Positions 15,215 to 64,000 of a DNA stretch of 64,000 bases are shown here, piece by piece (position 1 is the stretch's first letter; every line of letters begins with the position of its first letter). Location of the stretch: assembly GCA_016183565.1 (NCBI GenBank), contig JACPEJ010000001.1, positions 614,479 through 678,478 of the forward strand, written 5' to 3'. The notes below the pieces were generated by a model that did no database searches, had not been told where the DNA came from, and worked only from the letters and a program-made list of their open reading frames with translations. This DNA is from Candidatus Blackburnbacteria bacterium. GTDB taxonomy: Bacteria; Patescibacteriota; Microgenomatia; UBA8517; UBA10165. The position numbers and the translations under genes were made by a program.

Positions 15215-15250
15215 ATCCTGATCTACTTGTACTACCTGTACTACTTGTGC
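15215..15250 (+). repeat. 9-bp tandem repeat (CTACTTGTA-CTACCTGTA-CTACTTGTG-CTAC) directly after a stop codon
   Basis: The same repeat family, in the same orientation relative to the upstream gene, recurs at 63121-63165. Confidence 0.6.
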
Positions 15251-15263
15251 TACTTTAAAGTGT

Positions 15264-15542
15264 ATGGAGCCAGTAGATAGGGTGCATAGACCATTGGGAA
15301 AGATGCTTCTGCATAATTTCTTGGGGGGTATTGCTTGGGCTTTAGGAGTTACTGTTGGTTTGTCAATTGTTTTGGGAATTTTGGGATACTTGGTTTCTAA
15401 GGTAGATTTTGTTCCAGTAATTGGCGATTTTGTTAAGAAAATTACAGAATCTGTCATTGAGCAACCTAAGCCTGAGATCCGGATACCATCTAAAGCTGCC
15501 GCACCAACTCTAATCCCTACTCAACAAATTCCTGAAGAGTAG
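15264..15542 (+). CDS. Hypothetical small membrane protein
   Basis: ORF with one or two TM helices. Confidence 0.35.
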   Translation: MEPVDRVHRPLGKMLLHNFLGGIAWALGVTVGLSIVLGILGYLVSKVDFVPVIGDFVKKITESVIEQPKPEIRIPSKAAAPTLIPTQQIPEE

Positions 15543-25798: not shown

Positions 25799-27865
25799 AT
25801 GAAGCTTGCTGATCCGGTGGATACTATCCCTTTTGTTGGGCCAGGTTATGCATGGAGATTGAAAAAGCTTGGTGTAAATACTGTTAAGGATCTTTTGTAT
25901 CATATTCCAAATCGCTATCAAGATTTCTCTTTGCTTTCAAATATAAGTACGCTTCAGCCCGGAGAGGAAGTTACAATCCAGGGACAAATACTTTCAATTG
26001 AGAACATTTATACAAGGAAAAGAATAGTTATACAGCGGGCGCAAGTTTCGGATGGAGAAGGAGTTATTGAAGCAACATGGTTTAACCAACCTTTTTTGGT
26101 TAAAAATTTACCTCCTGGGACAATGGTTTCTTTGTCGGGGAAGGTTAAGGCTTCTGGTTCTCGTAGATCTCTTGTTTCGCCGGAGTATGAGAAACTACGA
26201 ACTACTAACTACGCCTTTCCGAAGGAAACATCTTTACTACGAACTGGTGACACTGTTCATACGGGTCGTTTGGTACCTATCTATCCTGAGACTGAGGGTC
26301 TTTCATCAAAGTGGTTGCGCTCAAAAATATCACATACTCTGCCTAGGGTCATTGAGGAAATATCTGAATATCTTCCGGAGGAACTTTTGGCAAGGTTTAA
26401 ACTAATTAGTCTTCAGGATGCTATTAAGAAAGTCCATTACCCAAAGAGTTTAGAAGAAGCTTTGGAGGGAAGGAGAAGATTGGCATTTGACGAGCTTTTG
26501 GAATACCAGTTAAAAAGTTTGATTCGTAAAAACGAATGGAAAGAAAAAAAGCTTTCGCATAAACTTTTGGTAAATCAAGAAAAAATGCTCCAGTTTATAA
26601 ACAGTTTGCCTTTTAATTTAACAGATTCACAGAGAAGATCTGGCCGAGAAATTTTAAGGGATTTAAAAAAGAGCCAACCTATGAACAGGTTATTGGAAGG
26701 AGATGTGGGTTCTGGAAAAACTGTTGTTGCAGCACTTGCTTGTTACATGGCGGTTCAAAACGGATTTCAGGCAACGTTTATGGCTCCAACACAGATTCTT
26801 GCTTCGCAGCATTACGTCACGTTGAATAGTATACTTGGACCTCTTGGTGTGAGTGTAGGGTTGGTTACTGGAGGGAGGCGAAAAGCGAAAAGCGAAAAGC
26901 GAAAAAAAATTGACGTGTTAGTCGGAACTCATGCTCTCGTCCAGAAAAGTGTCACGTTTGAAAACCTCGGATTAGTCGTAATTGACGAGCAACACAGATT
27001 TGGGGTAGCCCAACGAGCCATCCTCACACAAAAGGGCAGTGGTGGATTTTCTCCTCATGTTCTTACAATGACCGCAACCCCAATTCCCAGAACTGTTGCT
27101 TTAACTATTTATGGCGACCTTGATCTTTCAACTCTTGATGAGCTGCCAAAAGGCAGATTAAACATAAAAACGTGGGTTGTTCCACCTCAAAAAAGAGAAG
27201 GTGCTTACGATTGGATCAGAAAGCACGTTAAAGACACTGATGAACAGGCTTTTATAGTTTGTCCACTTATTGAAGAGTCAGAAAAGGAAACCATGAAGGC
27301 AGTTAGGGCAGCAACTGCTGAGTTTGAAATGTTATCTAGGAAAGTTTTTCCGGACCTGCGTTTGGGTCTCCTTCACGGCAAGGTGGGACTTTCGGAAAAG
27401 GATGAGATTATGAGAAAGATGCAAGGGGGAGAGATAGATATTCTTGTTGCAACACCGGTTGTGGAGGTTGGAATTGATATTTCAAATGCGACTATTATGA
27501 TGATTGAGGCAGCAGAAAGGTTTGGTCTTGCACAACTTCATCAATTGCGAGGGAGGGTGGGTCGTGGTGCAAAACAATCTTATTGCCTTCTTTTTTCCGG
27601 ATCATCTTCACCTCAAGTTGTGATGCGTCTTAAGTCACTTGAAAAAACTATGTCAGGACGAGAACTGGCGGAGATTGACTTGAAGATGCGGGGGATGGGG
27701 GAACTTTATGGGACTTTACAGCATGGTTTTCCGGAGTTGAAAATTGCATCTTTTATGGATACTGAACTTATAAAGGCTACTCGTTTCGCTGCCGAGTGGC
27801 TCGTTGAACAGAAGGCAGACCTTTCAAGATTCCTTTCAGGCTCTGAGATCGTGGTGCCCAATTAG
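25799..27865 (+). CDS. recG: ATP-dependent DNA helicase RecG
   Basis: Wedge domain; helicase motifs GDVGSGKT and DEQHRFGV; C-terminal QLRGRVGRG. Contains a (GCGAAAA)4 repeat at 26881-26908. Confidence 0.9.
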   Translation: MKLADPVDTIPFVGPGYAWRLKKLGVNTVKDLLYHIPNRYQDFSLLSNISTLQPGEEVTIQGQILSIENIYTRKRIVIQRAQVSDGEGVIEATWFNQPFLVKNLPPGTMVSLSGKVKASGSRRSLVSPEYEKLRTTNYAFPKETSLLRTGDTVHTGRLVPIYPETEGLSSKWLRSKISHTLPRVIEEISEYLPEELLARFKLISLQDAIKKVHYPKSLEEALEGRRRLAFDELLEYQLKSLIRKNEWKEKKLSHKLLVNQEKMLQFINSLPFNLTDSQRRSGREILRDLKKSQPMNRLLEGDVGSGKTVVAALACYMAVQNGFQATFMAPTQILASQHYVTLNSILGPLGVSVGLVTGGRRKAKSEKRKKIDVLVGTHALVQKSVTFENLGLVVIDEQHRFGVAQRAILTQKGSGGFSPHVLTMTATPIPRTVALTIYGDLDLSTLDELPKGRLNIKTWVVPPQKREGAYDWIRKHVKDTDEQAFIVCPLIEESEKETMKAVRAATAEFEMLSRKVFPDLRLGLLHGKVGLSEKDEIMRKMQGGEIDILVATPVVEVGIDISNATIMMIEAAERFGLAQLHQLRGRVGRGAKQSYCLLFSGSSSPQVVMRLKSLEKTMSGRELAEIDLKMRGMGELYGTLQHGFPELKIASFMDTELIKATRFAAEWLVEQKADLSRFLSGSEIVVPN
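26881..26908. repeat. Heptanucleotide tandem repeat (GCGAAAA) x4 inside the recG CDS
   Basis: gcgaaaagcgaaaagcgaaaagcgaaaa encodes RKAKSEKRK. Confidence 0.85.
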
Positions 27866-38785: not shown

Positions 38786-38941
38786 GAGTTTAAAAAATTT
38801 TCAATTTTCAATTCTTAATTTTTATTCAATTTTTAATGACTAAATGTTTACTAATTAGGTTTTAATCTAATTGAGTATGTTAAATTTAAAATTAGATTAT
38901 TTGGATTTGATTAAAAATTTAAAATTTAAAATTCATTTCCT

Positions 38942-48583: not shown

Positions 48584-50590
48584 ATGGATCCGATATTACT
48601 AATATCAATAGCTGCATCTTTGGTTACACTTATCTATAGTGCTTTCCTGGTAGTGCGCATCTTAAGACTTCCTGCGGGAGATGAGAAAGTACAAGAGATC
48701 GCAAAAGCAATAGCAGAGGGTGCGGCGGCATACCTGGCTCGTCAAAATAAGACCGTTGCAGTTGTTGCCATAGTTCTTACTGCTGTGCTTTGGGCAACAT
48801 TGGGAGTTTATGCGGCAGGTGGATTTTTAATCGGGGCTCTTGCTAGTGTTCTGGCTGGATACAGCGGGATGATGGTGGCTGTAAGAAGCAATTCTCGTAC
48901 AACCGAGGCTGCAAAAAAGGGACTTCCTGAAGCTTTATATGTTGCTTTTCAAGGAGGATCTGTAACCGGACTTATTGTAGGCGGACTTGCACTTTTGTCG
49001 ATTTCGATCGTTATTTTTTTATCTACAGTATTAGGCTTTGAACCAAATATGGCTCTGGTTGCCCTTGGGTTTGGGGGTTCTTTAATTTCAGTATTTGCAA
49101 GATTGGGCGGGGGAATTTACACCAAAGGCGCTGATGTAGGAACAGATATTGTAGGAAAAATCGAGAAGGGAATACCTGAGGATGATCCAAGAAATCCCGG
49201 CGTTGTAGCCGATCTTGTGGGAGACAATGTTGGAGATGATGCGGGAATGGCTGCCGATCTTTTTGAGACTTATGTTGTGACCGCAGTTTCGGCAATTCTT
49301 TTGGGTTCGCTTCTTTTTGGGGGTGGGGCAAATGTCTTGTTTCCACTTTTGGTTTCGGCAATTTCTTTGATCGCTTGCTTAGTTGGTACTTTCTTTGTTC
49401 GTTTATCCAACAGCAAAAGAATTATGCCTGCGCTTTATAAAGGGGTTGGAGCAACGGCTATTTTTGCAACTATTGGAGTAGTGCTGGCACTGAGAATATT
49501 GCCTCCGAACATACCGCAACTTAGTGATTCAAGTATTCTTGGAATTTTTCTAGTTGGGGTAGCCATAACGACTGGAATGATAGTAACTACTGAGTTTTTC
49601 ACTGGTAAAAATTCGGGTCCGGTTCGCAAGGTTGCAGAGGCGGGTGCTTCTGGACATGCGACTAATATAATCGCCGGGCTTGCGCTTTCTATGAAAGCAA
49701 CTCTTTTCCCAATACTGCTTATTGCCGTGGGAATTTTGGCATCATACATACTTGGTGGTCTTTTTGGTATAGCACTGGGAGCGGTAAGTATGCTTTCTCT
49801 AACCGCTATAGTTGTTGCAATTGATGCTTTCGGTCCTATAACGGACAATGCAGGTGGAATAGCTGAAATGTCAGGGCAGAGTGAGTCGGTAAGAAAAGTT
49901 ACGGACTCACTAGATGCTGTGGGTAATACTACTAAGGCAGTTACTAAAGCATACGCTATCGCTTCGGCTGGCCTTGCAAGTCTAGTGCTTTTTGCTGCCT
50001 ACACGGAGGAGTTGGCTAGGCGAGGAATGACAGAATCTTTCTCGCTTTCTGACCCTTATGTTCTTGTTGGTCTTTTCCTTGGCGCTTCTCTGCCATATCT
50101 CTTTGCAGGATTTGCAATGGAAGCTGTGGGGCGGGCAAGCCAAGCTATTGTTGCTGAAATTAGGCGCCAGTTTAAAGAAATAAAGGGAATACTTGCAGGT
50201 ACGGCTCGACCGGAATATGCAAAGTGTGTGGATATTGTTACAAAAGCGGCTTTAAGAGAGATGATAATTCCTGCACTTATTCCAGTTATTACGCCGATTG
50301 CGGTCGGGTTGTTGTTAGGAAGCCGAGCACTTGGTGGACTTTTGATGGGCATTATTATAACCGGTTTGTTTGTTGCAATTTCTATGACAACTGGTGGGGC
50401 TGCGTGGGATAATGCCAAAAAGTATATAGAGGATGGAAATTTGGGAGGTAAAGGTAGTGTTGCCCACCAGTCTGCTGTTACGGGAGATACTGTAGGAGAT
50501 CCTTACAAAGACACGGCAGGGCCCGCGATTAATCCAATGATAAAAGTGGCTAATGTAGTGGCATTATTGCTAGCGCCATTCTTGGTGTAA
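48584..50590 (+). CDS. hppA: Membrane-bound H+/Na+-translocating pyrophosphatase
   Basis: [28 protein letters not shown], and about 15 TM helices. Confidence 0.9.
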
Positions 50591-50673
50591 AACGAAAAAC
50601 GGGAAACGTTATACGAAGAACGAAGAAGTATTTAACGTCTGCCGTTTTACGTTTAACATATTACCTTCTACTC

Positions 50674-53600
50674 ATGAAAATCGGCAAAGTAATACCAGCT
50701 GAGATAACTCAAGAAATGCATAGAAGCTATCTTGATTATGCGATGTCTGTTATTGTCGCGCGTGCTCTTCCTGATGTTCGGGATGGTTTAAAACCTGTAC
50801 ACCGAAGAATTCTTTTTGCAATGAATGATCTGGGTTTAGCTCCTAGCTCAGCTTACACAAAGTCAGCAAAGGTTGTTGGAGAAACGATGGGTAAATACCA
50901 TCCTCATGGTGATGGACCAATCTATGATGCTCTTGTCCGCATGGCCCAAGACTTCTCGTTGCGCTACCCGCTGGTTGATGGCCAGGGAAACTTCGGCTGT
51001 TTTACTAAAGATACAAAAATTAAACTAACAGATGGTCGCGATATAACCTTCCAGGATCTCATAGTAGAGTACAAGAAAGGTAAAAAGAATTATACCTATA
51101 CCATAAACTCCCAGGGACTGATTAACATTGCAGAAATAAAGCATCCCAGGCTGACAATTAAAAAAACTCAGATCGTAAAAATTACTTTAGACAACGGCAA
51201 GAAAATAAAATGTACACCGAACCACTTATTTATGTTGAAAGACAGAAGCTATAAGGAGGCAGCCAATCTAACGAAAAAAGACTCTCTCATGCCTTTTTAC
51301 CAAAGGCTATCTCAAAACACGGATCGCCTCAATAGGGAAGGCTATGTTCTAATCTTCCAAAATTCAACTGACACGTGGGTGCCCACACATCATCTAGCCG
51401 ACAACTACAACTTAACTCACGGCACATACACAAAAAGCGCAGGAAGAGTGCGACATCACCAAGATTTTAACAAGCTTAATAACAATCCAGACAATGTAAT
51501 CAGAATGGCATGGGAAAACCACTGGAAGATCCATTATGAAAATGCAAAATTGAAACACAAAGACCCTGAATACCGCGAGAAGATAGCAAAAGGCCGGACA
51601 GAATACTGGTCAAATCCTGCCGCACGCGAGAAGCAAGCACTTCGTACGTCAACCATGAACTTCAAGAACTGGCAAAATCCCAAGTATAGGGAAAAAATGA
51701 AAAAATTGTTAAGTGAAGTTAATATTCAATACATTGCTGCACACCCTGAAAAAAGGAAAGAGTTCAGCGAAAGAGCGCACAGAACGCTCAAGAGACTATG
51801 GCAAGATCCAAACTACCGTGCCGCAATGCATGAAAAGATTATTAAAGGCAACAAAAACCACACAATCAACAAGACTGATAGGGTCAAGTTTATAAATATT
51901 TGCAAGGAGGTAACTAAACAGTTTCAATCTCTAGATGAACATAATTACAATCAAGCACGAAGTACCGTTTACCCTTACGGTTCATCTCCCTTTTGGCGAA
52001 CGGGATTGAAAAACTACTTTAATAATGACCCAGATCTCGTAAGACTTGAGATAAACAAGAATCACAAAATCGTGAGTGTAGAAACTCTTGTTAAAAGAGA
52101 GGATGTCTATGATTTAACAATTGACTCAACACATAACTTTGCACTAGCAGCAGGAGTTTTTGTCCACAACTCAGTAGATGGCGACCCCCCGGCAGCTATG
52201 AGATATAGTGAGGTGCGTCCCTCGAAAATTTCTCAGGAATTATTAAAAGATATTGATAAAGGCACCGTAGAATTTGATGATAACTTTGACGGATCTTTGA
52301 AAGAACCAAGATATTTGCCTGCACTCTTGCCTAATCTTCTTTTAATGGGCGCAGAGGGCATTGCTGTGGGTATGGCGACAAAGATTCCGCCTCATAATTT
52401 AACAGAAGTTACAGATGCAATTATTGAAACTATTAAAAAAGGAAAGGTTGTAAGAGAGGGGAATGGAGGAACCCCTAGACCCCCCTTCGACTACGCTCAG
52501 GGTCGCTCAGGACAAGTCCATTCGGCTAGCTCAGGACAAGCGGATGATTTCTTTATAAAAAGGATTGACCTTGCGGTTTCTCAAAATAAGACCAAGGTTA
52601 CAGATACAATAAAAGAGCAAAGCTCTCTTCAACTGCGTATAGAAGCACCAAAAGTCGATTTTGCCTCTGATATAACAATTGAAGAAATAATGGGCTATAT
52701 CAAAGGCCCTGATTTCCCAACCGGAGCTGTAATTTATGGCGGGAAATTGCTTCCGGAGGTTTATAGTTCGGGGCGAGGCAGAATTGTTATCAGAGGTGTT
52801 GCAAAGATTGAAGAAACTGTCCGCGGCAAGACTCGCATTGTTATAACAGAACTGCCATACCAGGTAAACAAGGCGGTACTTGTTGCAAAGGTCGCAGAAC
52901 TTGTTCGCGATAAAAGGATTGTTGGAATCTCGGATCTTCGGGATGAGTCTGACCGACGCGGAATGTCGGTTGTTATAGAGCTTAAAAAAGATGCCCGCCC
53001 CAAATCGGTTCTAAATAACCTCTACAAACACACAGATTTACAAACAACATTCCCAGCAAACTTTGTTGCTCTTGTTGATGGAGTGCCTAGAACTCTAAAT
53101 ATTAAGCAGATTTTGGTCGAATACATAAGACACAGGCAACAAGTAGTAACCAGACGATCGATATTTGAGCTTACAGAAGCAAAGCGACGGGCTCATATCC
53201 TTGAGGGATTGAAGATTGCCCTTGACAATCTGGATGCAGTTATAAAAACAATTCGCGAGAGCAGGGATGGGGAAACTGCGAAAAACAACTTGATAAAGAG
53301 GTTTGGCTTAACCCAAGTTCAGGCAGTTGCCATTCTTGATATGCAACTCAGGCGTCTTTCAGCTTTGGAGCGGGAAAAGATTGAAGAAGAATATAAGAAA
53401 GTTCAAGAGATCATAGATTATTTGACAGATCTCCTACTTCACCCCGAGAAAATTTTGAAAGTCATAGAGGATGAGCTTGGTGCTCTTAAGGAAAAATACG
53501 GAGATGTAAGACAGACCCGAGTTGTGGCGTCTCCAATAGGGGAGATGTCGGAAGAAGATTTGGTTGCAAAAGAAGATGTTGTAATTACTATTACCAAGAC

Positions 53601-54591
53601 AGGATATATAAAACGGGTTCCACCAAACACATATCGGCAACAGAGGCGAGGAGGGAAGGGAGTAGTGGGTATGACAACAAAAGAGGAAGATGAGATAGCT
53701 TCTCTTCTTTCCGCTTCTACGCATGATAGTCTTATGTTTTTTACTAACAAAGGTCGTGTCTTTGGTTTGCGGGTTTGGGAAATTCCTGAAAGCTCCCGAC
53801 AGTCCAAGGGACAAGCAGTTGTTAACCTTATTAACATCGATCAGGGGGAAAGGGTAGAATCGGTTTTATCTTTGGAGAAAGAGAGTGGTGTTAAGTATTT
53901 AATTCTTGCAACCCGAGACGGTGTAATTAAAAGAACATCTATTGAGCAGTTCAAGAACTTGCGTTCCGGAGGCTTAATTGCGATTAGACTTGACAAGAAT
54001 GACTCTTTGGCTTGGGTAAGACCAACGGATGGCAAGAGTCATGCGATTCTTGTAACTAAGAAGGGTAAGTGCATTCGTTTTGCGGAAAGTGATGTTCGGC
54101 CAATGGGAAGACCAACGCGGGGAGTGCGAGGGATTCAGCTACATGACGGAGATCAGGTTGTTGGCATGGAAGTTGTTCCGGAAAAACCAGAGACAACAAC
54201 AGACAAGAGACGGAAATTGTTTAGGAATATACTTGTTGTTATGGAAAAGGGTCTCGGGAAAAGAACTCCGATCCAATATTTCCCCTTGCAGAAACGAAGC
54301 GGGATGGGGGTTAAAGTTGCTGAGTTGACGGACAAAACAGGAGATGTGGCAGCAGCGCTTTTGGTAACACAGGAGATTCCTGAGGTTTTGATTACGAGTA
54401 AAACCGGGCAGGTGATTAAACTTCCTTTGAAGAATATTCCGCAATTGGGCAGAGCTACTCAGGGGGTAATTCTAATGCGCTTTAGTGATAAGGCCGATCA
54501 GGTTGCGGCAGTTGCGACACTTGAGAAAGACGGGGGAGAGGAAGAAACACCTGTGACAGAGACTTCAGAAGAAGCTCCTGAGGTAAACTAG
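50674..54591 (+). CDS. gyrA: DNA gyrase subunit A, interrupted by an in-frame intein
   Basis: The extein reads ...[12 protein letters not shown]|[16 protein letters not shown]... An intein lies between the two halves. GyrA beta-pinwheel repeats follow. Confidence 0.9.
50998..52170 (+). mobile_element. GyrA intein (391 aa) with a putative HNH-type homing endonuclease domain
   Basis: Starts at Cys ([13 protein letters not shown], block A). Block B is CTPNHLFML. Ends ...[12 protein letters not shown], followed by a Ser +1 nucleophile. The middle part carries THH...N...NHWKIH and no LAGLIDADG motif. Confidence 0.8.
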
Positions 54592-59214: not shown

Positions 59215-59618
59215 GGTAGGAAGGTAGTACGGGTATTATACCACCCTTGAGGCTCAAGGCGCTGAGGTGAATGGATAGTCACTCTTGACCCTGTTTGAGC
59301 TTAGCATTCGCCTTTACAGTATTATCCATACACGACTCATGCTGCGCTCTTAACGGGGTCTGCGCCCCGCTGGTGCAAGCACCATAGCGGGGCTTGACAA
59401 AATTTATTACAGACATATACTCAACTTACCCGAATTTGCAATTTTCTGAAGTTGAGTAGAACCCAATATAGCTATTTGTAGCATGTAAATTAATGTATGT
59501 TAGGTATAATACTCAATTGAACAACCACGTAAAATGAGAAACGTTTAACGGCAAACGGGAAATGGCAAACCCTTAATGCTTTACGTATCACGTTTTGCGT
59601 TTTCCGTATCACGAGTTT

Positions 59619-60344
59619 ATGAATCAACTTGCCCAAAGAGCTGTCCAGGCTGCAATACGAGGCAACTGGCAAGAAGCAGCACAAATAAACGAGGATGTTT
59701 TAAGAGAATCACCAAATGATAAGGATGCTCTTAATCGGCTTGCCCACGCGTACGTTGAGCTTGGTAAACGCCAGCAGGCACTTCTAACTTACAAAAAAGT
59801 AATTAAACTCGATCCTTATAATACAATTGCTAAAAAGGCTGTTGATAGATTGCAAAAACTAAAGGGTAGCGCTTCGCGTGGCCGACCAAGACTTCGACCT
59901 TTACCCAATGGTCAGTCGGCCGTAAAATCAGCGACAGTATTTCTTGAAGAACCCGGTAAGACAAGGACTGTTTCTTTAATCCATCTTGGAAGTAGCACTG
60001 CTCTTTCCAGTTTGGATATTGCGTATGAAGTTAAACTTGTCCCTCATGCTCATCGTGTGTCTGTTGAAATAGGAAGTGGACAGTATATAGGAAGATTGCC
60101 GGACGATATCTCCCGAAGAATAATCAAGTTTTCAAGAGAAGGTAATGAGTATGAGGCCTTTGTCCGTTCTGTTAACCAAGATAGTGTGCGTATATTTATT
60201 AGGGAGACTAAGCGAGGTGTGAGTATAGCGGATATTCCCTCTTTTCCTTTGACTGAAAAACCAAATTACGTTGCTTTTACACCACCTGATCTTATTCACG
60301 ACGAACGACCTGAAGTAGAGAGCCTGGAAGAGGAATCTGAGTGA
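59619..60344 (+). CDS. TPR-repeat protein (ORF open from 59595)
   Basis: TPR-like helical repeats (ALNRLAHAYVELGKRQQALLTYKKVIKLDPYN). Confidence 0.5.
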   Translation: MNQLAQRAVQAAIRGNWQEAAQINEDVLRESPNDKDALNRLAHAYVELGKRQQALLTYKKVIKLDPYNTIAKKAVDRLQKLKGSASRGRPRLRPLPNGQSAVKSATVFLEEPGKTRTVSLIHLGSSTALSSLDIAYEVKLVPHAHRVSVEIGSGQYIGRLPDDISRRIIKFSREGNEYEAFVRSVNQDSVRIFIRETKRGVSIADIPSFPLTEKPNYVAFTPPDLIHDERPEVESLEEESE

Positions 60345-60346
60345 GT

Positions 60347-61345
60347 TTAGAAGTATTTCACAAAATCTTCACCTAATATAATTTCTAAGCTCGCGGGGCC
60401 GGCAGGATCCTTTGAATCAGAGGTGCATCCAAAAAGGCCGATGATCTGTTTGGCTGCCCGAGATTTGAGTGTTTTTCCCCTTTCTCGGACTACGCAAACT
60501 TCTTTAAGATTTTCTTGGCCTGTATCAATAGCGACAACTCTAATTCCTAGGATTGAAACCGTGCGGGAGACCTCTGCCCCTACTCCGCTTTTGCCTGTGG
60601 CGTTGGTAATTTTTATTGTTTTTGCTTCTTCGAAAACTTTATCATCGCGCAGGGCGTCTAGAACCAGAACGGTCTTTTCTGGAATGACCAGAAAACCCTT
60701 CTCGCCGTCTGCGAGAAATGACTCTTTAATCGCGCCAGAGGACACAAGATTTATCTCGCGACGATTTAGAGTGCTTACCCGACCAACGGCGACTGCCAGG
60801 TTGAGCCGATCAAAAAAAGTAAGATTTGTTCCGAGTTTGGCGTTAGGTAGTGCCTTAATCATCGAAGGTAAAAACGAGAAACTGCTGTTTTGGAAAAATC
60901 CTTTGCCTTGCCTATTCATCCAACCGTCAATTGGCATTCCTAGGGATTTTTGCACGGAAGATGCAAAAAGTCTTCCTCCTTTTTTCTCTTGGTCGTCAAG
61001 GGCCCAAAGGCTACCTGCCATCCATTCTCCATATCCCATCGCAGAGGTAAGCTGTGTTTCTTTGGGGATTGGGAATGTGATTAGGGTTTGGCTTCGCGGG
61101 TTGTAAGAATAAACAGTTGGGTCAGGGGTTGCTACAACAACAGTTATGCGGCTATTGCCATCCCAAAGTCTGTTTTGCCATGCTAAATATACTTTAAATA
61201 CTACAAATACTAGAACCAAGCTTAGGACAGCTAGAATGAAACGAATTACATAAACTTTGTAAATATCAGTCTTTTTGCGACTTGATGATTTACGACGCGA
61301 TATAGTTTTTCGGGCGCGGGATTGACTTTTGGGTTTTCCGGGCAC
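60347..61345 (-). CDS. LCP (LytR-CpsA-Psr) family protein with C-terminal LytR_C domain
   Basis: TM anchor, an LCP core, and a C-terminal IKITNATGKSGVGAEVSRTVSILGIRVV. Confidence 0.55.
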   Translation of the reverse strand: MPGKPKSQSRARKTISRRKSSSRKKTDIYKVYVIRFILAVLSLVLVFVVFKVYLAWQNRLWDGNSRITVVVATPDPTVYSYNPRSQTLITFPIPKETQLTSAMGYGEWMAGSLWALDDQEKKGGRLFASSVQKSLGMPIDGWMNRQGKGFFQNSSFSFLPSMIKALPNAKLGTNLTFFDRLNLAVAVGRVSTLNRREINLVSSGAIKESFLADGEKGFLVIPEKTVLVLDALRDDKVFEEAKTIKITNATGKSGVGAEVSRTVSILGIRVVAIDTGQENLKEVCVVRERGKTLKSRAAKQIIGLFGCTSDSKDPAGPASLEIILGEDFVKYF

Positions 61346-61401
61346 TGTATTAAAAGTAACACAGAGAGAACAAGGAAAACAAATTTGTCTTCAACTGATG
61401 A

Positions 61402-63117
61402 TCATTCAATGGCGAAGCGGTTGCGGAAGAGCTTGTTGAGTTCGAGTTGGCTTCGGCCTCTGAAGAAGCCTAGATCGGTCCAGTGATTTCTTAAAGCTTC
61501 CATTACAAATTCTCCTGAGACGACTTCGGGCACAATAACATAGTCAGATCCTGCCTCGTACAAAGTTTTTGCGTCTGAAACAGACGAAGCACGGGTTAAT
61601 ATTGGTGCACGGGCTTTCCTTCTTTTGGCTTCATTAAGAAGAATTAAATTATCGTCTAGGGAAGGAGCTGTTGAGATAATAATCCTTGCTTTTTCAAGGT
61701 TCAAAAATTCTAATGTTTCAGGGTCTCCCAAGTCTCCATACATTGCGGTTATGTGTTCGTTAGTTAAGTTTTGTATTACTCGTGGATTAAAGTCCAAAAC
61801 AACCAATGCTACTCGTTCTCGCCTAAGAAACCTTATAATTTCCCCACCCATGCGGTGCGCTCCTATTAAGACAACATGATCCTTCGATAAAGCTCCGTCT
61901 TTTTTCATCTCAATTTGGTGAATAAATTTGCCTCGCTCAAAAATACTTATAAAAGAAGCGAACTTTTTGTAGAGATTGCGGGATGAGGTAATCATCACAG
62001 AAGAAACCATTATTGAAATGACTGCTGCAAGTGCAATTGCGGTAACCGCTTCTTGCGAGACAACTCCGAGCTTAAGACCAATAACCATGATGATAAGAGA
62101 AAATTCTGAGATTTGTGAGAGATTGAGAGATGTTTGGAAAATAGTGTGCTTGCGGAAACCGAAGGCGCCTAGAATAAACGAGAATATTAACGGCTTAATA
62201 AGAATAGCGTAGAGCGTAAAAATTATAATAAGTGGCAAGGCCAACGCAATATCTTGGAATACTACCTGGGAACCGAGGTAAACAAAGAACAACATAACAA
62301 AAAAGTCGCGCAGGGGTTTAACTTTGCCCTGGATTTCCCAATAGAATGGAGAGTTTGCAAGGGCAAGACCAGCGAGGAATGCGCCGATAACGACAGAAAA
62401 ACCTAACAATACTGAGATTGATACGAATATAAAACACCAAGCCAGGGAGACTAAGAACAGAAGCTCGGGTGAATCCGCAACTACTTTAAATATACGCTTT
62501 AATACATATTTGGATAAGAAAAGAGCAGTTGCTAAAAGTCCTGTGCTCTTAAGAAAGATAGCTAAGACGGGAAACGCTTGAGTTAGCCCGCTATTCAAAA
62601 CAGAATTACCAACAGTCAAAACCATTAAGATTATTATTGCTGCTAAATCCTCAAGAAGAAGGATGCCTATAGAAAGTTTGCCATAAAGCGAGCTTAGGTC
62701 TTTTTTCTCTAATAAAAGTTTTACAACAACGATTGTTGAAGAAAATGCTAAGCCAAATCCCAAAAACAAACTCTCAGCTTGGGTAAATCCAAGTAATGAT
62801 GCTACTCCAAAACCAGTTATACTGGAAAGCAAAATTTGCACAAGGGCACTGACAATTATGGGTTTCCCTAGGTTTTTTATCTCTTTCCAGTCCATCTCCA
62901 TTCCAATCAAAAACAAGACAAAAGCAATCCCGATTTCCGGGAAAACCATGAGGGAGGAGCTAGAAAGATCAAAGACTCGCCAAACGGAGAATAGAACACC
63001 AGTAAGAAGATAGGCTACTATAAGAGGCAGTCTAAGAGTTTTAACTGCGTATCCAATAACTGCAGCTACTCCTAAGACTGCAGCAAGTTCTAAAAACAAT
63101 GAACTGGCATCACCCAC
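61402..63117 (-). CDS. Cation:proton antiporter (CPA2/Kef-type) with C-terminal RCK/TrkA-N domain
   Basis: About 12 TM helices, then VVLIGAHRMGGEIIRFL...VVLDFNP (Rossmann RCK). Confidence 0.75.
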   Translation of the reverse strand: MGDASSLFLELAAVLGVAAVIGYAVKTLRLPLIVAYLLTGVLFSVWRVFDLSSSSLMVFPEIGIAFVLFLIGMEMDWKEIKNLGKPIIVSALVQILLSSITGFGVASLLGFTQAESLFLGFGLAFSSTIVVVKLLLEKKDLSSLYGKLSIGILLLEDLAAIIILMVLTVGNSVLNSGLTQAFPVLAIFLKSTGLLATALFLSKYVLKRIFKVVADSPELLFLVSLAWCFIFVSISVLLGFSVVIGAFLAGLALANSPFYWEIQGKVKPLRDFFVMLFFVYLGSQVVFQDIALALPLIIIFTLYAILIKPLIFSFILGAFGFRKHTIFQTSLNLSQISEFSLIIMVIGLKLGVVSQEAVTAIALAAVISIMVSSVMITSSRNLYKKFASFISIFERGKFIHQIEMKKDGALSKDHVVLIGAHRMGGEIIRFLRRERVALVVLDFNPRVIQNLTNEHITAMYGDLGDPETLEFLNLEKARIIISTAPSLDDNLILLNEAKRRKARAPILTRASSVSDAKTLYEAGSDYVIVPEVVSGEFVMEALRNHWTDLGFFRGRSQLELNKLFRNRFAIE

Positions 63118-63120
63118 AGT

Positions 63121-63165
63121 TCAAAGGTAGCACAGGTAGTACAGGTAGTACAAGTAGTATAGGGG
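63121..63165 (-). repeat. 9-bp tandem repeat (GGTAGCACA-GGTAGTACA-GGTAGTACA-AGTAGTATA), second copy of the family seen at 15215-15250
   Basis: On the minus strand it reads CTACTTGTACTACCTGTACTACCTGTGCTAC, directly downstream of the rluA stop. Confidence 0.6.
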
Positions 63166-63220
63166 AGGCGTGAGAGGCGTTTAGCCTTGCAAGGAAGACC
63201 TTGCGAGGTTACCTTAACTG

Positions 63221-63973
63221 CTAGAGCAGTAAGACATCCTCTAGTTCTTTGGGTAATGGTGCTTCTATGGTTATGTGTTTTTCAGTTACCGGGTGGGTGA
63301 ACGTAAGGCTTTTGGCGTGCAGGAAGAGCCTTGGGCACCATTCTCTGTCTCGTCTTGCGGTTTTTCTCCCTGCATAAAGTATATCTCCTACCACAGGATG
63401 ACCAATGTGTTTTAGGTGAACTCTGATCTGGTGAGTTCGGCCGGTTTTTGGATAGAGCTCAAGCAGGGAAAGCGAGGTTGTAGGTTGTAGGTTGTAGGTT
63501 GTAGGTTGTAGGTTGTAGGTTGTAGAAATTTGGCTTGCCAGTTGATTGATCAACGACTTGACTATGTACAGTGTTTTTGCCTCTCGCCCGTCTTTCAATA
63601 CACCAAATCTTGTTCTTTTCCAAGGAAGCCGACCGACAGGCGCGTTGATTGTCCCTTCAGTTGGTTCTACTCTGCCATGAACTAACGCTACATAGCCCTT
63701 CTCTACTCCCCGTTCTTTAAACTGCTTTTGCAAATTTTCAAAAACCTCCGGAGTTTTAGCAATAAGCAATACGCCGCTTGTTTCTTTGTCTAATCTGTGG
63801 ACTAGCCCGTTTCGCATTTCAAAGTCATGTGCTAGTGGAAAATTGAAATTCGTATCAATCCAATCCTGAAGGGTTTCATCCTCTGTCGCAAAACCTCGGT
63901 TTACAACCATTCCGGAGGGCTTGTTAATAGCAAGTAGATAGTCGTCTTCAAACAATATATGTGGTTGAATCAT
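63221..63973 (-). CDS. RluA-family pseudouridine synthase carrying an in-frame heptanucleotide-repeat insertion
   Basis: ETSGVLLIAKT, HQIRVHLKHIGHPVVGD. The inserted peptide TTYNLQPTTYNLQPTT is encoded by (GGTTGTA)8 at 63475-63530. Confidence 0.75.
   Translation of the reverse strand: MIQPHILFEDDYLLAINKPSGMVVNRGFATEDETLQDWIDTNFNFPLAHDFEMRNGLVHRLDKETSGVLLIAKTPEVFENLQKQFKERGVEKGYVALVHGRVEPTEGTINAPVGRLPWKRTRFGVLKDGREAKTLYIVKSLINQLASQISTTYNLQPTTYNLQPTTSLSLLELYPKTGRTHQIRVHLKHIGHPVVGDILYAGRKTARRDREWCPRLFLHAKSLTFTHPVTEKHITIEAPLPKELEDVLLL
63475..63530. repeat. Heptanucleotide tandem repeat (GGTTGTA) x8 inside the rluA CDS
   Basis: Seen directly: ggttgtaggttgtaggttgtagg... Confidence 0.9.
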
Positions 63974-64000
63974 AAACGGAATCTGAAGAATGTGTGGAAA

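Follow-up and report, generated by a model that had tools for sequence, protein, structure and literature searches.

Among the described systems closest to the locus analyzed here is the neuO gene of Escherichia coli K1, located on the CUS-3 prophage, which contains a translated 7-nt VNTR, (AAGACTC)n. The full-length product is encoded in one copy-number class modulo 3, and strand slippage changes the copy number; the array lies at the 5' end of the gene and spans 3-53 copies, and among 64 complete genomes, 65.6% carry the gene in the OFF state (PMC13001214). In Haemophilus influenzae, (AACAACC)8-13 in an HI1369-like TonB-dependent receptor gene and (AATTTTG)14 in hmw1A are likewise intragenic and frame-shifting. 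These tracts belong to surface and uptake genes of a pathogen, vary in copy number among strains, and have been seen in frameshifted alleles (PMC2651432). An SSR in a pseudouridine synthase gene is also on record, namely, the poly-C tract in truA (tRNA pseudouridine synthase A) of Neisseria meningitidis. This homopolymer lies in the gene of another family of synthases and carries the status "SSR present" only (PMC7371114).

Another relevant group comprises dispersed heptamer families: the cyanobacterial STRR; TAACTGA of Beggiatoaceae, Cyanobacteria, and Bacteroidetes; and GGGAATC of Xanthomonas and Nostoc. In these families, a given 7-nt unit is found in tandem at many loci, is occasionally translated if its orientation is stop-free, and forms insertions that are tolerated at protein peripheries, with four units preferred in Xanthomonas and Nostoc (PMC4679880, PMC4692102). 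As cited in the same two papers, Mrazek 2007 described an excess of long heptanucleotide SSRs in prokaryotes and found units that are multiples of three to be those favored inside genes.

We analyzed a 64-kb stretch of DNA from a "Candidatus Blackburnbacteria" MAG (hereafter, the window), in which a heptanucleotide array is located inside a gene encoding an RluA-family pseudouridine synthase (Table 1). On the plus strand, seven GGTTGTA units follow each other with zero mismatches at positions 63476-63524, and the uninterrupted period-7 run covers 51 nt, or 7.3 copies. An initial annotation of this DNA had reported eight perfect units at 63475-63530 within a pseudouridine synthase coding sequence; the perfect tandem heptamer and its location in the gene were confirmed, but the array consists of seven full units and ends at 63525. 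The coding-strand unit, TACAACC, is translated in frame as S-TTYNLQP-TTYNLQP-TT-S, in agreement with the peptide given earlier (TTYNLQPTTYNLQPTT). This peptide does come after the conserved YIVKS segment, as had been noted, but 10 residues, LINQLASQIS, intervene. In the reverse orientation, the unit contains TAG in all frames, so that TACAACC is the only translatable orientation. There are no other TACAACC arrays within the 64-kb window. Judged from the sequence, a role as a G-quadruplex or hairpin seems unlikely: with GG runs 5 nt apart, no more than two tetrads could form, and the unit is not self-complementary. An Rfam scan of positions 60000-64000 detected no RNA family over the heptamer array or over a nearby 9-mer repeat.

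Table 1. Features of the RluA-family gene in the window (positions in the window) and units of the loop arrays in orthologous genes
Feature	Position	Strand	Remarks
RluA-family pseudouridine synthase gene	63221..63973	-	250 aa, PF00849
Heptanucleotide array	63475..63525	-	(TACAACC)7 on the coding strand, (GGTTGTA)7 on the + strand; residues 150-166
Enlarged hairpin loop, residues 144-166	63476..63544	-	between strands 133-143 and 167-175
Motif II HRLDKETSG, H59-G67	63773..63799	-	catalytic Asp62; 5' of the array
Motif III GRTHQIR, G178-R184	63422..63442	-	3' of the array
Site A NFNFPLAHDF, residues 42-51	63821..63850	-	orthologues carry a second heptamer array here
L003 loop array			(TCTCAAA)4.4, perfect
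L042 loop array			TCTCAAA/TTTCAAA
L049 loop array			TTTYCAA
L011 and L020 loop arrays			TTCAGAA
L005 and L033 loop arrays			ATACAAN
L016 loop array			TATGTAT
L039 loop array			GTTAAAA
L001 loop array			14-nt CACAACT/CACTACC

The gene was rebuilt in silico with 1 to 12 units and translated. Full-length products of 236, 243, 250, and 257 aa resulted from 1, 4, 7, and 10 units, respectively; any other unit number in this simulation gave a product of 159-198 aa without GRTHQIR. Such frameshifted products would keep motif II and lose motif III. The statement that only 3-unit changes preserve the frame therefore holds. A unit that is not a multiple of three and lies inside a gene (here, codons 150-166) is what is expected of a contingency locus, and the dependence of the full-length product on one copy-number class modulo 3 is shared with neuO. 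The two arrays differ in that neuO is a surface-modifying accessory gene with the repeat at its 5' end, whereas the window contains seven copies in the middle of a gene for a core RNA-modification enzyme, the orthologues of which are never OFF. The H. influenzae unit AACAACC is one base apart from TACAACC; in contrast to the strain-variable H. influenzae tracts, the locus in the window is known from one strain.

The 250-aa protein matched the PseudoU_synth_2 profile with an E-value of 8.3e-30. The nearest PDB sequences are RluC, RluA, and RluD (E-values of 1e-29 to 1e-32), and a Foldseek search with the predicted fold retrieved RluD and RluA (E ~1e-22, TM 0.7-0.8). In an alignment of 70 sequences, H59, R60, D62, T65, S66, and G67 of motif II and all residues of motif III (G178-R184) are invariant. 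Judging from the profile, the fold, and the two intact motifs, the protein is a member of the RluA family with predicted activity. It lacks an S4 domain, and its sequence is identical to that of an NCBI entry located on a 686-kb contig of a "Candidatus Blackburnbacteria" MAG. Some JGI homologues are annotated as "23S rRNA pseudouridine1911/1915/1917 synthase," which is a label only.

The array encodes part of a loop between two strands (Table 1). In an AlphaFold model built with 70 homologues (mean pLDDT of 91.4, pTM of 0.87), this loop adopts a coil conformation with pLDDT of 50-70, suggesting that the repeat peptide forms the disordered tip of a beta-hairpin. The first part of the loop is the LINQLASQIS segment, which is either non-repetitive or a decayed repeat, and the array forms the second part. 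Among 120 aligned homologues, the region from GRxAxTxY to TGRTHQ is hypervariable and contains unrelated insertions of 0-50 aa. Going by the alignment and the model, this loop appears to be a general insertion-tolerant, disordered site.

Orthologous DNA was obtained from 80 related loci identified in one metagenome scan and from one locus identified by exact look-up, and 66 unique orthologous genes were compared. A heptamer array was called when a 28-nt segment showed at least 80% period-7 self-identity. The loop is enlarged (>17 aa) in 38 of these genes and minimal (17 aa) in 28. Heptamer arrays were observed in the loop of 13 of the 38 genes with an enlarged loop, and none was found anywhere in the 28 minimal-loop genes. 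The same analysis with the control periods 5, 6, 8, 9, and 10 yielded 0, 0, 1, 0, and 0 genes, and the array threshold was reached by none of 1,320 codon-shuffled genes. The orthologous arrays mostly have about four copies (4.3-4.9) and are often imperfect; the 7.3 copies in the window are the longest tract seen. The unit differs by lineage (Table 1), and every orthologous array is in frame; the copy numbers of 4.3-4.9 fit the frame-preserving series of 1, 4, and 7 units.

Six of the 38 enlarged-loop genes contain an array at a second site (denoted site A), which is located about 100 codons upstream, just before HRLD. One example, (ATTTTCA)4.3, encodes FSIFNFQFSN; the window gene has a similar peptide at site A but lacks an array. 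Site A arrays were identified in L019 (564-593), L028 (1354-1385), L034 (830-864), L016 (3126-3159), and L003 (780-809). The L019 and L028 genes are only 55% identical and have the same perfect (ATTTTCA)4 at this site. In P0018, an abundant Blackburnbacteria orthologue, the site A peptide is NFQFSIFNFQ, which at the peptide level is what (AATTTTC)n would encode. The window also contains two intergenic arrays, (AATTTTC)3.9 at 38796-38822 and (ATTTAAA)3.4 at 38910-38933; the AATTTTC unit is that of the perfect coding site A arrays of L019 and L028.

The nearest loop relatives of the window gene are L005 and L033, in which (ATACAAN)4 encodes IYNIQDTTYSL. The window peptide TTYNLQPTTSL is recognizably related to this sequence when the two are compared, and the 3' junctions of the arrays are also alike. 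A plain expansion from four to seven units was dismissed as a full account: the window loop is larger by 19 aa, not by 7, and such an expansion would leave the 10-aa non-repeat or decayed segment to be explained. The repeat units themselves change rapidly. L020, L037, and L019, which are 72-78% identical outside the loop, have the units TTCAGAA, TTAACAG, and CTAWACG, and L042, L039, and L045 (74-79% identity outside the loop) have TCTCAAA, GTTAAAA, and ATKRACA. Such different units among close relatives suggest that turnover is faster than protein divergence. Furthermore, within each array, a given base change is repeated in all units even though the units are read in different frames, a pattern that selection on the protein cannot generate and that calls for turnover at the DNA level, by repeated birth or slippage homogenization. 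In the rluA loop of L035 and L036, a 29-nt non-repeat sequence, TTCGATCCCGAGCTCAGGACCGAGGGGC, is located between AATTTCC units, as if inserted into the array.

These observations bear on the possibility that the loop extension is functional, for example, as an RNA or ribosome contact, and was selected at the protein level, with the DNA repeat being only its mode of origin. The enlargement of the loop in most Microgenomates-type orthologues is compatible with such a function, but the sequence is hypervariable, the pLDDT is low, and concerted changes in differently framed units are beyond the reach of protein-level selection, so we consider a selected extension very unlikely. The copy number could also be an artefact of assembly or sequencing, given that the sequence comes from a MAG. 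However, the 51-nt array is shorter than a read and perfectly in frame, and homologous arrays are present in many independent assemblies, making this the least credible of the explanations, with hardly any weight.

Species-representative genomes were scanned for (GGTTGTA)3, which identified at least 120 loci. In another Blackburnbacteria genome, a TACAACC array is located inside the peptide deformylase gene (def), where it encodes the same peptide as in the window, PYNLQPTT. This gene contains (TACAACC)3 in L177 (5523-5543) and (TACAACC)2 in L202 (def at 2001-2426), the latter being frameshifted before HEVDH. The alignment of the two assemblies, MHCB01000009 and ERZ27254763, covers 4,426 nt and shows no substitutions and a single 7-nt gap. 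This directly observed difference indicates that single-unit slippage of TACAACC occurs in nature even at three copies; by analogy, the seven perfect copies in the window should be less stable than the three in def. Thus, def, a normally essential gene, is present as a one-unit slip variant.

The foregoing brings us to the proposal of the initial annotation that the repeat has the architecture of a phase-variable contingency locus. The architecture itself stands: the unit is not a multiple of three, it lies in mid-gene and 5' of an essential motif, and a single slip truncates the enzyme. If this were a selected switch, slippage would toggle the synthase between ON (1, 4, 7, or 10 units) and OFF, and the resulting heterogeneity of ribosome or tRNA modification would be beneficial. 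In addition to the removal of motif III by a one-unit change, we count in favor of such a switch that E. coli can generally do without its rRNA pseudouridine synthases. The seven units also exceed the PhasomeIt cut-off for hexa- to nonanucleotide tracts, which is three units, and the meningococcal phasome list of the same study includes the truA SSR (PMC7371114). The three-unit tract of def slipped by one unit in the sister genome, and neuO provides a precedent for a translated heptanucleotide switch (PMC13001214).

The relatives that we searched argue against such a switch. In the comparison of orthologues suggested by the initial annotation, heptamer arrays recur at this loop in many genes, and all of the ~20 strong arrays in the 66 unique orthologous genes keep the frame. 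OFF alleles are thus absent from this set, compared with 65.6% OFF for neuO (PMC13001214). In the P0018 family (23 contigs), a protein search found no truncated near-identical alleles. None was found either in ten 90% orthologue clusters that were checked for array length polymorphism; the length differences within these clusters were rejected as array variants, since they reflected alternative start codons or fragments and had no connection with the arrays. For the window's species itself, the searched collections yielded a single strain. The window protein forms a singleton cluster and is missing from the index of encoding contigs, its next homologue being 61% identical and the best metagenome match 58% identical. 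The prevalence of about four, often imperfect, copies in orthologous arrays and the mid-gene position also speak against switching; in the account of Lin and Kussell given in PMC4692102, switch SSRs cluster at the 5' end of genes. The gene encodes an RluA-family enzyme and not a surface, restriction-modification, or uptake protein, and its class does not normally come under fluctuating selection. Finally, arrays are present as well in def, recG, and the gene of a LytR_C protein (see below), which points to a genome-wide mutational feature. Taken with the tolerant loop and the miscounted units, the in-frame orthologues and the arrays in other housekeeping genes leave the step from architecture to an actual contingency locus unsupported, and we regard a selected switch as unlikely.

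The abundance of heptamers in this part of the bacterial tree extends beyond rluA. In 425 kb of sequence (the window and related sequence), there are 13 perfect arrays of at least three copies at period 7, in contrast to 0-1 arrays at each of the periods 5, 6, and 8-12; shuffled sequence gave 0. The array in the window is therefore far from what chance would produce, and no tandem-repeat period is commoner in the sequence set than 7. About half of the arrays fall in rluA, which represents only ~16% of the set. Period 7 is thus the dominant non-3n period here, in line with the heptamer excess that PMC4679880 and PMC4692102 attribute to Mrazek 2007; in contrast to the preference for 3n units within genes reported by way of the same papers, 7-nt units are translated here and their copy number is constrained.

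Within the window, recG (25799-27865) contains two in-frame arrays, at 26193-26213 and 26878-26905, which are (AACTACG)3 and a perfect (GCGAAAA)4, respectively; the latter encodes RRKAKSEKRKK. Imperfect period-7 arrays with AAACGNN-like units are located at 50589-50627 and 59547-59570, just 5' of gyrA and of a TPR-protein gene. The gyrA gene (50674-54591, 1,305 aa) contains an intein (PF14890, residues ~119-499). A repeat of a different kind, the 33-nt element TACTTGTACTACCTGTACTACYTGTGCTACYTT, which consists of three 9-nt units, is present twice, at 15224-15256 (+) and 63124-63156 (-). Both copies are oriented with the adjacent gene and located 8-10 nt 5' of a start codon, that of a DUF5665 gene at 15264 and that of a Na/H-exchanger-TrkA gene at 63117. 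No copy of this element is expected in shuffles and it has no Rfam match; its position suggests a possible role in the 5' UTR or in translation initiation.

Several heptamer units recur at non-homologous sites. In L003, AAATCTC arrays are present in two adjacent genes, in the rluA loop (1069-1099, encoding ISNLKSQISK) and in the gene for the LytR_C protein (2110-2148, encoding KNLKSQISNVKCQ). AAAGTTA, together with a stop-avoiding AAAGTGA variant, is common to site A of L016 and a site denoted B in L039 (rluA), and AATTTCC is common to site A of L003 and site B of L049 and L035 (rluA). AACTACG is shared by the rluA loop of L044 and recG of the window, and TACAACC by rluA of the window and def of L177. 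In total, 8-9 coincident unit pairs were observed, whereas compositional or empirical 7-mer nulls predict ~0.17; one of the observed pairs (TACAACC) was ascertained by design. Identical units at non-homologous sites are not explained by simple local slippage.

Outside the window, the distribution of (GGTTGTA)n depends on its length. Among the matches listed from other genomes (134 arrays), 34 of the 110 arrays of 3-4 units are internal to long ORFs, whereas of the 14 arrays with six or more units, only one lies within an ORF of 150 aa or longer. Long (GGTTGTA)n is thus rarely found within ORFs, which makes the 7-unit array in the middle of a gene unusual. Cyanobacteria and many CPR genomes are also represented among the matches listed. 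In one Saprospiraceae MAG, DAINSQ01 (L083-L201), more than 20 contigs carry (GGTTGTA)n of up to 8 units, for the most part not within long ORFs, which resembles a heptamer family spread over the whole genome and sharing the unit of the window.

Such findings raise the possibility of a dispersed heptamer family resembling STRR or the Beggiatoa TAACTGA repeats, in which pre-formed arrays would spread and the rluA loop would be the place where in-frame landings survive. The excess of coincident pairs, involving AAAGTTA, AATTTCC, AAATCTC, AACTACG, and TACAACC, would be accounted for in this way, as would the occurrence of (GGTTGTA)n at dozens of loci in the Saprospiraceae MAG and its presence in cyanobacteria and many CPR genomes. 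However, TACAACC forms a single array in the 64-kb window, and the TACAACC pair was found through a search for TACAACC, an ascertainment bias that detracts from this explanation. The loop units also look like the ancestral sequence of the site itself (ISN from ATTTCAA, IQN from ATTCAGA), as predicted by local seeding, and a mobility mechanism is not known even for the classic heptamer families. These families are mainly intergenic, with one dominant unit each, whereas the CPR set comprises many units with a large coding share and is concentrated in one loop of one enzyme family. We consider spread of pre-formed arrays distinctly improbable. A more far-reaching version would combine spread with switching: translatable heptamer families of Microgenomates and CPR would have spread to, or been maintained in, surface loops of housekeeping proteins (rluA, def, recG, and LytR_C) as genome-wide stochastic ON/OFF switches, with the rluA loop serving as a long-lived, conserved switch site and the window array as the most active one. 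We view this scenario as quite doubtful.

We favor, with a probability of roughly 0.6, a hypermutable translated microsatellite that is tolerated in a disordered loop, with the frame held by purifying selection and OFF variants arising as by-products. In Microgenomates genomes, which are rich in heptanucleotide arrays in general, replication slippage would generate a 7-nt microsatellite that is translated as the beta-hairpin tip of an otherwise intact enzyme. Because the loop accepts nearly any insertion, arrays would be repeatedly born, homogenized, and replaced there, and selection on the enzyme would filter their lengths such that frame-preserving ones (1, 4, or 7 units) persist. The lineage of the window would have arrived in this way at an array of seven perfect units that is akin to the ATACAAN array found in its closest relatives. 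The window array is very likely hypermutable, so that 6- and 8-unit cells, in which the enzyme is truncated and inactive, would arise at an elevated rate; such OFF cells would be a by-product and not a selected switch, and we infer that adaptive switching is absent at this locus.

Some considerations go against the tolerated-microsatellite reading. Selection would be expected to interrupt or shorten an exceptional mid-gene liability of seven units. Identical units recur at non-homologous sites well above expectation, as described above. The long life of heptamer arrays at one loop could also be a sign of selection on the array as such.

Frame-shifting SSRs and families of heptanucleotide repeats are both of known kinds; what is unusual here is the gene and the lineage. 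Frame-shifting SSRs within genes are usually discussed for surface or restriction-modification genes of host-adapted pathogens, whereas here the gene encodes a core enzyme of RNA modification and the organism is an ultra-small bacterium of the groundwater type. If the array is merely a tolerated mutational by-product, it is a modest, clean example of the known heptamer bias. One-unit slips can make genes of this type look like pseudogenes in MAGs, which is a caution for annotation. In CPR populations, the array is a candidate cause of stochastic loss of pseudouridylation in rRNA or tRNA, as its counterpart in def is for deformylase. A single loop that hosts heptamer arrays across the clade provides a natural system for the study of microsatellite birth, homogenization, and frame filtering in essential-type genes.
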